Source of the DNA: Escherichia phage BYEP02
Length of the DNA: 64,000 nucleotides
Sequence record: OR757454.1
Strand: one strand, 5' to 3'
Part shown: positions 28,158 to 29,246 of the stretch, in pieces
How the letters are laid out: each line of letters opens with the position of its first letter
Numbering within the stretch: position 1 is the stretch's first letter
Program-made: the position numbers and the translations under genes
The notes under the pieces: model-generated
What the model saw: only the letters and a program-made list of their open reading frames with translations
Database searches by the model: none
Told to the model about the DNA's origin: nothing

Positions 28158-28244
28158 GCGAGAATGGTCAAATTGGTAAAGGCACAGCACTTAAAATGCT
28201 GCGGAATGATTTCCTTGTGGGTTCGAGTCCCACTTCTCGCACCA
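28158..28244 (+). tRNA. tRNA-Leu (anticodon TAA), type II
   Basis: Manual fold: acceptor gcgagaa/ttctcgc, anticodon loop cttaaaa, long variable arm, T-loop ggttcgagtcc, CCA encoded. Confidence 0.8.
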
Positions 28245-28249
28245 AATTT

Positions 28250-28323
28250 GCGGATATCGTATAATGGTATTACCTCAGACTTCCAATCTGATGATGTGAG
28301 TTCGATTCTCATTATCCGCTCCA
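28250..28323 (+). tRNA. tRNA-Gly (anticodon TCC)
   Basis: Acceptor gcggata/tatccgc, anticodon loop cttccaa, T-loop gttcgattc, CCA encoded. Confidence 0.8.
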
Positions 28324-28477
28324 ATTTAATTTACTCCGTGTAGCTCAGTTTGGTAGAGCGTCTGCTTTGGGAGCAGAATGTCGCAGGTTCAAATCCTGCA
28401 ATTTAATTTACTCCGTGTAGCTCAGTTTGGTAGAGCGCCTGATTTGGGATCAGGAGGTCCAAGGTTCAAATCCTTGT
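28324..28477. repeat. 77-bp tandem unit covering tRNA-Pro; first 37 bp identical, remaining 40 bp diverged with compensatory stem changes
   Basis: atttaatttactccgtgtagctcagtttggtagagcg then tctgc..gcaga / cgcagg..cctgc versus cctga..tcagg / caagg..ccttg. Confidence 0.85.
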
Positions 28478-28484
28478 ATGGAGA
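28411..28484 (+). tRNA. tRNA-Pro (anticodon TGG); a partial divergent duplicate of its 5' half lies in the upstream repeat copy 28324-28400
   Basis: Anticodon stem-loop cctga-tttggga-tcagg, T-arm caagg-ttcaaat-ccttg, acceptor ctccgtg/tatggag (two G-U pairs); directly abuts tRNA-Ser. Confidence 0.7.
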
Positions 28485-28486
28485 CT

Positions 28487-28576
28487 GGAGGCGTGGCAGA
28501 GTGGTTTAATGCACCGGTCTTGAAAACCGGCAGTCGCTCCGGCGACTCATAGGTTCAAATCCTATCGCCTCCGCCA
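28487..28576 (+). tRNA. tRNA-Ser (anticodon TGA), type II
   Basis: Acceptor ggaggcg/cgcctcc, anticodon loop cttgaaa, long variable arm, T-loop ggttcaaatcc, CCA encoded. Confidence 0.8.
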
Positions 28577-28686
28577 GTTTTGCTGATTTAGCTCAGTAGG
28601 TAGAGCACAGTCGCTCCGGCGACTCATAGGTTCAAATCCTATCGCCTCCGCCAGTTTTTGCTGATTTAGCTCAGTAGGTAGAGCAC
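28532..28686. repeat. 77-bp tandem duplication spanning 3' half of tRNA-Ser and 5' half of tRNA-Thr (1-bp indel between copies)
   Basis: agtcgctccggcgactcataggttcaaatcctatcgcctccgccagtttt(t)gctgatttagctcagtaggtagagcac twice. Confidence 0.9.
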
Positions 28687-28735
28687 CTCACTTGTAATGA
28701 GGACGTCGGCGGTTCGATTCCGTCAATCAGCACCA
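28660..28735 (+). tRNA. tRNA-Thr (anticodon TGT)
   Basis: Acceptor gctgatt/aatcagc, anticodon loop cttgtaa, T-loop ggttcgattcc, CCA encoded; intact only via copy 2 of duplication 28532-28686. Confidence 0.78.
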
Positions 28736-28736
28736 A

Positions 28737-28811
28737 GGCCCTGTAGCTGGAAGGTTCAAGCAAGCGACTCATAATCGCCAGATGGTGGTTCAATTCCACC
28801 CAGGGCCACCA
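28737..28811 (+). tRNA. tRNA with anticodon CAT (Ile-lysidine type as in T4, or Met)
   Basis: Acceptor ggccctg/cagggcc, anticodon loop ctcataa, T-arm ggtgg-ttcaatt-ccacc, CCA encoded. Confidence 0.7.
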
Positions 28812-28820
28812 AATTAATTT

Positions 28821-28907
28821 GGGGAGTTATCCCGTAGAGGTAGCGGTGTGGACTGTAAATTCATTGTCATTGCGACTCGGGTGGTTCGACTCCACCACTC
28901 CCCACCA
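28821..28907 (+). tRNA. tRNA-Tyr (anticodon GTA), type II
   Basis: Acceptor ggggagt/actcccc, anticodon loop ctgtaaa, long variable arm, T-arm ggtgg-ttcgact-ccacc, CCA encoded. Confidence 0.65.
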
Positions 28908-28911
28908 ATTT

Positions 28912-28986
28912 GGATGTGTAGCTCAATGGCAGAGCGATCGCCTGTTAAGCGATTGGTTATAGGTTCGAATCCTATCACGTCCGCCA
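28912..28986 (+). tRNA. tRNA-Asn (anticodon GTT)
   Basis: Acceptor ggatgtg/cacgtcc, D-arm gctc-aatggca-gagc, anticodon loop ctgttaa, T-arm atagg-ttcgaat-cctat, CCA encoded. Confidence 0.75.
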
Positions 28987-29100
28987 AATTTGTGACAACT
29001 GTCACATTAATATCTACTTGACGCGATTATAGGGGTTGAACTGATCACTCTTCTCTTAATTTCGTGTGAAGACATCTTGATTGTTGGAGTAGGTATTAAT

Positions 29101-29166
29101 GTGGCCGTAGTTCAGTTGGTAGAACTCGAGATTGTGATTCTCGTAGTCATGGGTTCGACTCCCATC
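29101..29166 (+). tRNA. tRNA-His (anticodon GTG)
   Basis: Acceptor gtggccg/cggtcac, D-arm gttc-agttggta-gaac, anticodon stem-loop cgaga-ttgtgat-tctcg, T-arm atggg-ttcgact-cccat. Confidence 0.7.
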
Positions 29167-29170
29167 GGTC

Positions 29171-29246
29171 ACCCCAATTACGGGGCATAGCTCAGAAGGA
29201 AGAGCAAGGACCTTCTAAGTCCTAGGTCGTAGGTTCGATCCCTACT
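29171..29246 (+). tRNA. tRNA-Arg (anticodon TCT)
   Basis: Acceptor cggggca/tgcctcg, D-arm gctc-agaaggaa-gagc, anticodon loop cttctaa, T-loop ggttcgatccc, CCA encoded. Confidence 0.75.

Follow-up and report, generated by a model that had tools for sequence, protein, structure and literature searches.

The present analysis concerns the tRNA gene cluster in a stretch of 64,000 nucleotides (nt) of Escherichia phage BYEP02 (sequence record OR757454.1), which we refer to as the window. We conclude that this is very probably an ordinary T-even (Tequatrovirus) tRNA cluster in the layout of phages slur03 and ACG-C40, that it differs from the cluster of T4 through endonuclease-driven exchange of cassettes, and that the tRNA-like fragments lying between its genes are artefacts. 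The order we propose for the region is an HNH endonuclease gene in the tRNA-Gln slot, then Leu, Gly, Pro, Ser, Thr, an Ile2-type tRNA with a CAT anticodon, Tyr, Asn, a structured leader, His, Arg, an open reading frame (ORF) of 116 amino acids (aa), rnaD and rnaC.

ARAGORN, run over the whole 64-kb window, returned exactly ten tRNA genes, all on the plus strand and spanning 28158–29256. An original prediction, made by manual folding of the sequence, had also listed ten tRNAs, and all ten of its hand-derived anticodons, including those for Tyr, Asn and His, agree with the ARAGORN set; the cluster end it gave, 29246, falls 10 nt short of the end of tRNA-Arg, and two tRNA-like fragments inside the cluster (28334–28399 and 28582–28659) had been overlooked. 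The genes are tRNA-Leu (UAA; 28158–28244; 100% identical to the slur03, T4 and T2 genes), tRNA-Gly (UCC; 28250–28323), tRNA-Pro (UGG; 28411–28485; the T4/slur03 allele), tRNA-Ser (UGA; 28487–28576), tRNA-Thr (UGU; 28660–28735), the CAT-anticodon tRNA (28737–28811), which by allele comparison is the T2/RB3 allele and not that of T4, tRNA-Tyr (GUA; 28821–28907), tRNA-Asn (GUU; 28912–28986; the same sequence as the T2 gene), tRNA-His (GUG; 29101–29176) and tRNA-Arg (UCU; 29181–29256; a T2/RB3-type allele). The Rfam tRNA model RF00005, judged at its gathering score, recovered nine of the ten, with E-values from 2e-15 to 3e-11. The remaining gene, tRNA-Tyr, fails this general model, and its sole Rfam match is to tRNA-Sec at 30.9 bits, below threshold. 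Because this gene is nevertheless identical to the functional tRNA-Tyr of T6, screens based on Rfam only would undercount the cluster.

The E. coli gene nearest to the CAT-anticodon tRNA is annotated in RefSeq as a tRNA-Ile with a CAT anticodon (81.6% identity), and the anticodon arm and the acceptor ends of the two are identical. The phage tRNA carries C4:G69 and C5:G68, which are determinants for TilS, and it is labelled tRNA-Ile (ATA) in the records of phages AndreasVesalius and REP3. As judged from these features, it is most likely a tRNA-Ile2, which would read AUA after a predicted lysidine modification.

The cluster has matches in 950 phage records. In the Escherichia phage slur03, the same ten tRNAs occur in the same order, and every gene is 100% identical to that of the window; the two also share the HNH gene in the Gln slot, the leader-His module and the ORF downstream. 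What separates the two is a pair of 77-nt duplications and 14 substitutions in the left segment of the window, 7 of them in a fragment of a foreign tRNA-Pro allele. We also searched the public phage records with a composite query that joined the HNH gene to the spacer-His module, which consists of the Asn-His spacer and tRNA-His. This query was found at full coverage and with unchanged spacing in 23 records, among them slur03, slur08, slur14, DCP2, teqhad, S2_01, MLF4, UTI-E4, a51, Ozark, ACG-C40, L14 and KarlGJung. ACG-C40 was described in 2012 with '10 tRNAs', clustered between 68,043 and 68,989 bp (PMC3347319). Taken separately, the HNH gene occupies the Gln slot in 63 of 519 matching phage records, and the spacer-His module is present between Asn and Arg, or at an equivalent position, in 245 records, about 200 of them at 95% identity or more; the others belong to T4-like phages of Klebsiella, Enterobacter and related hosts. 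By this comparison, the ten-tRNA arrangement is evidently already known and not new.

The T4 set had been given in the original prediction as Gln, Leu, Gly, Pro, Ser, Thr, Ile (CAT) and Arg, which matches T4, and the contrast drawn from it, that Gln is absent here and Tyr, Asn and His are extra while the flanking genes are near-identical to those of T4, holds. The window cluster does not have the T4-type layout of eight tRNAs, in which Gln is present, segB lies between Ile and Arg, and Tyr, Asn and His are missing. Shared with T4 are identical Leu, Gly, Pro and Ser genes, a Thr gene of 98.7% identity, homologous flanks and rnaC and rnaD genes, and the position of the cluster in the genome. T4 itself, however, keeps Gln with no HNH gene at that place, carries other alleles of Ile (CAT) and Arg together with the GIY-YIG gene segB, and lacks Tyr, Asn, His, the leader and the 116-aa ORF, all of which are present in the window.

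At the left end of the cluster, homology to both T4 and T2 reaches nucleotide 7 of tRNA-Gln. The remnant TGGGAAT (27530–27536, plus strand), located by alignment with T4, T2 and slur03 and by the BLAST breakpoints, comprises the first 7 nt of the gene. All of tRNA-Gln beyond these nucleotides is replaced by a free-standing HNH endonuclease gene (27543–28151, plus strand; 202 aa), which ends 6 nt ahead of tRNA-Leu. Its product belongs to phrog_14736 ('HNH endonuclease', E = 2.6e-123), matches ten further HNH PHROGs, and contains CAIC at residue 35, CPNC at residue 71 and the motif DHIDGNNKNH..N..H; the score of the same protein with the Pfam HNH model is 17.4 bits (E = 0.005), below the curated cut-off of 21.4 bits. 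The HNH gene accounts for the loss of tRNA-Gln only.

At the right end, BLAST homology to T4 breaks off at 28748, 12 nt inside the CAT tRNA, and restarts at 29625, the start of rnaD. Between these points, a cassette of 876 nt, comprising the body of the CAT tRNA, Tyr, Asn, the spacer, His, Arg and the 116-aa ORF, replaces the 853 nt of T4 that hold the Ile body, segB and Arg. The CAT and Arg genes are T2/RB3 alleles and not those of T4, and the tRNA-Arg of T4 gave no BLAST match to that of the window. The 116-aa ORF (ORF116; 29275–29625, plus strand), a member of phrog_3355 and of unknown function, lies in this cassette absent from T4 and is present in T2, slur03 and ime09. It is followed on the same strand by a homologue of rnaD (species II stable RNA; 29624–29739), aligned to the annotated RB3 record AJ884578, and by rnaC (species I stable RNA; 29747–29886), which is identical to the RB3 gene at 140 of 140 positions.

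The phages T2L, RB1 and RB3 (AJ880101, AJ884577 and AJ884578) have the CAT, Tyr, Asn and Arg alleles of the window (97–100% identity) and no segB, but they keep Gln and lack His and the leader, and T2 has an ORF that replaces Thr. Previous work reported that T2L, RB1 and RB3 have no segB and carry Met (CAU), Tyr and Asn, that SegB recognises a conserved motif in the tRNA T-arm and cuts best inside tRNA-Asn, and that in co-infections of T4 with T2L, SegB homing replaces about 1250 bp that hold Met, Tyr, Asn and Arg (Brok-Volchanskaya et al. 2008, PMC2330249). The contrast with T4 in Tyr, Asn and His reflects T4's own cassette of Ile, segB and Arg, and for Tyr and Asn it traces to the GIY-YIG gene segB. 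Since the tRNA-Asn of the window has the same sequence as in T2 and RB3, the preferred SegB site that was mapped in T2L is expected in it. No segB is found in or beside the window cluster. In T6 (Chihara et al. 2026, PMC13096335), tRNA-Tyr is 100% identical to that of the window, but segB lies beside it, and Pro, Ser, Asn and His are missing from the stretch compared.

When the close T-even relatives are set side by side, they have 7 to 10 tRNAs drawn from a pan-set of eleven, and where a tRNA is missing, its place is taken in almost all of the slots examined by an endonuclease gene or a small ORF. T4 reads Gln, Leu, Gly, Pro, Ser, Thr, Ile, segB, Arg; T2 has an ORF instead of Thr; T6 reads Gln, Leu, Gly, Thr, CAT, Tyr, segB; ime09 and RB3 have Gln and nine others with no endonuclease gene; AndreasVesalius has a GIY-YIG-type gene instead of Pro and retains Gln and His. 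Six further loci that encode the identical HNH protein have GIY-YIG genes at the Pro or the Asn slot, segB, or none of these, with 7 to 9 tRNAs. The segB gene occupies the Tyr-Asn position in T4 and BYEP01 and lies directly after Tyr in T6. The exception to the filled slots is T6, in which Pro and Ser are missing and no gene is annotated between Gly and Thr. The difference between T4 and the window very probably arose by exchange of small cassettes through free-standing homing endonuclease genes that target tRNA genes: in the lineage of the window, the HNH gene replaced Gln, and T4 has its Ile-segB-Arg cassette at the place where the window has CAT, Tyr, Asn, His, Arg and ORF116.

As to function, the tRNAs would add to the host's supply for those codons that are more frequent in the AT-rich phage than in E. 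coli, and by analogy with T4, in which the tRNA genes are co-transcribed and processed by host enzymes, the genes of the window would be expressed in the same manner. We compared codon use in 58 genes of slur03 with that in 23 E. coli genes (7,512 codons), none of which had been picked for high expression. All seven codons of the NNA-type tRNAs are commoner in the phage than in the host sample, with phage/host ratios of 2.5 for TTA, 2.3 for AGA, 1.8 for ATA, 1.7 for both TCA and GGA, 1.6 for CCA and 1.4 for ACA. Among the amino acids, Tyr is the most over-used by the phage (1.56-fold) and Asn is used 1.30-fold; the ratio is 0.75 for His and 0.39 for the codon CAC. These results support the codon-supply model for nine of the ten genes, namely the seven NNA readers, Tyr and Asn. 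The model does not explain tRNA-His, because His is under-used by the phage.

A different view of the GUN-anticodon genes, which is compatible with the cluster being an ordinary T-even one, is that the phage retains Tyr, Asn and above all His mainly for counter-defence and not for codon adaptation: these RNAs would replace host tRNAs that anticodon or variable-loop nucleases cut, or act as decoys for them. The three genes belong to the group of four tRNAs with GUN anticodons (the queuosine tRNAs), which are substrates of colicin E5, and tRNA-His is not accounted for by codon demand and has no encoded G-1 (see below). An identical tRNA-Tyr counters Septu in T6, where the gene, when amplified, overcomes Septu cleavage of tRNA-Tyr (PMC13096335). 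From its identity to the T6 gene, the tRNA-Tyr of the window likely helps to restore tRNA that defence nucleases of the host have destroyed, and a counter-defence role for part of the tRNA set is, by this analogy, plausible. However, Tyr and Asn are the amino acids most over-used by the phage, so demand alone explains both of them, and the phage tRNA-His has the same anticodon loop as its host counterpart, which would expose it to the same cleavage. We consider it possible, but less likely than not, that counter-defence is the main reason for which the three genes are kept.

The supply model leaves the His module to be considered on its own. The 114-nt spacer between Asn and His (28987–29100) folds far better than shuffled controls (minimum free energy z = -4.36), and its conservation across Tequatrovirus, Karamvirus and Jiaodavirus equals that of the tRNA-His itself. 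Folding and covariation define a structured leader RNA of about 100 nt at 28995–29111 (plus strand) that runs 3 nt into tRNA-His; its 17-bp closing helix takes in G1, U2 and G3 of the tRNA. The structure has 33 pairs, which are paired in 95.7% of cells compared with 35–55% when the partners are slid, and it includes four doubly compensated pairs; none of 500 shuffles reached the observed covariation score. The covariation support is moderate, as only about three lineages contribute to it. The leader occurs in 355 phage records of the three genera and is annotated as a feature in none of them, and a permissive scan of Rfam returned no family for it. A covariance model detected one copy in each genome that bears tRNA-His, and it found no leader in the T4, T2, T6, RB3 and ime09 loci and no relation to rnaC or rnaD. 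Phage REP3 keeps the leader though it has no tRNA-His. When IMG/VR was scanned with the invariant 15-mer of the leader, 4 of the 52 loci recovered were true homologues.

We also considered the leader as a promoter and rejected this: a sigma-70 scan of 27300–30200 gave 14 sites, a number not above the 10.0 ± 2.7 expected from shuffling, and no plus-strand site fell inside the Asn-His spacer. A perfect palindrome, TGTGA-CAACTG-TCACA, is located at the 5′ edge of the spacer (28991–29006). Its sequence matches the core of the CRP-site consensus; it is present in the Tequatrovirus copies and only half-conserved in Karamvirus, and it could be no more than a hairpin.

The tRNA-His gene, aligned with E. 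coli hisR, has C73 (29173) and the GUG anticodon, but position -1 (29100) is T, where hisR has G, and the copies in Karamvirus and Jiaodavirus likewise have T at -1. The G-1/C73 pair is the major identity element for bacterial histidyl-tRNA synthetase and is normally encoded in the gene (PMC9976931). The gene of the window does not carry the bacterial tRNA-His identity set, that is, an encoded G-1 opposite C73 together with GUG, and a search of the literature on phage tRNA-His without G-1 found nothing relevant. The module as a whole is common to Tequatrovirus, Karamvirus and Jiaodavirus at 81–100% identity. One interpretation is that it is a non-canonical unit and not a simple codon supplement, for example an element for regulated processing or a poorly chargeable decoy tRNA directed against host tRNA-targeting defence; we consider this unlikely. 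The leader and the G-1-less tRNA-His are the only part of the region for which current knowledge does not yet account.

The original prediction had further suggested a different tRNA cassette, consistent with the adjacent HNH homing endonuclease. That the cassette differs from the one in T4 and that the HNH gene fills the Gln slot has been borne out, but the link to Tyr, Asn and His has not. Because the HNH gene and these tRNAs assort independently among the relatives, the gene is not tied to them. The identical HNH protein occurs at the six loci mentioned above, which have 7, 8 or 9 tRNAs, with or without Tyr and Asn and in every case without His. Conversely, AndreasVesalius has tRNA-His together with Gln and no HNH gene, and T2, RB3 and ime09 carry Tyr and Asn without it. 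The stronger proposal, that a distinct and possibly new cassette was brought in as a unit by the adjoining HNH gene, draws on the position of that gene next to the cluster and in the Gln slot, and on its presence or absence among near-identical phages (63 of 519 records), as expected of a mobile gene. We think that this is very unlikely in view of the independent assortment just described and of the 23 records in which the HNH and His arrangement is already present.

The C-terminal part of the HNH protein matches phrog_16521 (E = 2e-4), to which the T2 ORF in the tRNA-Thr slot belongs, although no pairwise similarity was detected between the T2 ORF and the HNH protein. The same part contains a helix-turn-helix-like stretch of 24 residues in common with the GIY-YIG-type protein encoded in the Pro slot of AndreasVesalius. 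That protein, when considered as a relative of the HNH endonuclease, proved to be GIY-YIG-like and unrelated except for this match. These matches involve the C-terminal half of window 27543–28151, positions 2970–3371 of comparison locus L003 and positions 1113–1721 of comparison locus L007, and it may be that the endonucleases in tRNA slots share a DNA-binding module.

The two tRNA-like fragments within the cluster belong to a feature of the whole window. Tandem Repeats Finder identified 54 tandem duplications, each with 2.0 copies and 0–9 mismatches; the unit is exactly 77 nt long in 52 of them and 81 nt in the other two (29887–30050 and 50854–51016); examples are 437–594, 13492–13645 (in gp7), 26098–26251, 28319–28472, 28531–28686 and 42669–42822. 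The duplications are absent from slur03, T4 and T2. Relative to slur03, the window is a chain of segments, each of which restarts 77 nt back on the reference, and the identity of the segments to slur03 varies from 96% to 100%. Such restarts also fall inside terminase, neck, baseplate and tail genes, and in the terminase, baseplate and tail genes the duplication shifts the frame. In the sequence as given, only 17 of the 35 conserved slur03 proteins have an unbroken reading frame; when one copy of each duplication is removed (4,166 nt), this number rises to 34, and the last protein runs off the edge of the window.

Two of the duplications lie in the cluster, both on the plus strand. The first (28319–28395 and 28396–28472) yields the truncated Pro-like piece at 28334–28399, which consists of the 5′ 65 nt of a tRNA-Pro without the 3′ acceptor strand and appears in the Rfam search as an eleventh tRNA at 49.6 bits. 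PP01 and 45 other records have a tRNA-Pro allele (the PP01/HY03/BYEP01 type) to which this piece is 100% identical, and an evolved paralogue with compensatory-looking differences was ruled out on that ground. The second duplication, of 77/78 nt (28531–28607 and 28608–28685), creates a chimera of a Thr 5′ part and a Ser 3′ part (28582–28659) that reached 25.3 bits in the permissive Rfam scan. Both duplications are absent from about 630 matching phage records, and their novel junctions have no exact match in IMG/VR. Judged from these comparisons, the Pro fragment and the Thr/Ser chimera are evidently not biological and are not genes. In the simplest reading, the duplications look like untrimmed overlaps between assembly-graph segments from at least two related strains that were co-assembled; short-read assemblers often have 77 as their largest k-mer, and the exact assembly route is inferred.

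That the Pro copy and the Thr/Ser chimera are instead real tandem amplifications, like the SegB-driven 'accordion' amplification of the T6 tRNA-Tyr, is scarcely credible: segmental amplification is documented at this locus in T6 (PMC13096335) and T-arm homology among tRNA genes could seed unequal recombination, but the T6 unit is 718 bp long and comprises a whole tRNA gene at one locus, whereas the units here are of 77 nt, hold no complete tRNA, lie in a cluster with no segB in or beside it and recur with an identical period at 52 sites over 64 kb (and with 81 nt at two more), including terminase, baseplate and tail genes, with junctions absent from about 630 related records and IMG/VR and one copy that is another strain's allele.

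Several points weigh against our account of the cluster. The overlap copies are not all identical (0–9 mismatches), as they would be after a plain de Bruijn-graph join. The codon comparison uses a small host sample (23 genes and 7,512 codons), and tRNA-His stands outside codon supplementation, with His at 0.75-fold and CAC at 0.39-fold and without an encoded G-1. Moreover, because the cluster spans three assembly segments, of which the left one (from the HNH gene to the Pro fragment) is nearer to BYEP01-type phages (99.55%) than to slur03 (98.4%), it is uncertain that the left and right parts are linked on one genome in this sample; BYEP01-type phages have a T4-like right half. The ten genes do occur together on one genome in slur03 and others.

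Downstream of rnaC, a dispersed repeat of 36 nt, CACTTGCCTTAGCAGGTGGAACCCCGACAAGGTTGC, is followed by a terminator-like hairpin. The repeat is located at 29932–29967, 30013–30048 (a copy due to the assembly artefact) and 30568–30603, brackets an ORF of 157 aa at 30090–30563, and is also present in slur03, T4 and T2.

The finding itself matters little, given that reports on the varying tRNA sets of T-even phages and their link to homing endonucleases go back to at least 2008, and the very set seen here occurs many times in GenBank. Of most use in practice is the result that the repeats of about 77 nt and the broken genes of this window look like assembly artefacts, and findings from it that rest on such tandem repeats, on frameshifts, on split genes or on 'pseudogenes' are to be distrusted. 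The leader and the G-1-less tRNA-His stand out as a small, testable oddity. For the T-even phages, the comparison gives a clean picture of a mosaic with 'one endonuclease gene per tRNA slot', laid out on a pan-set of eleven tRNAs.

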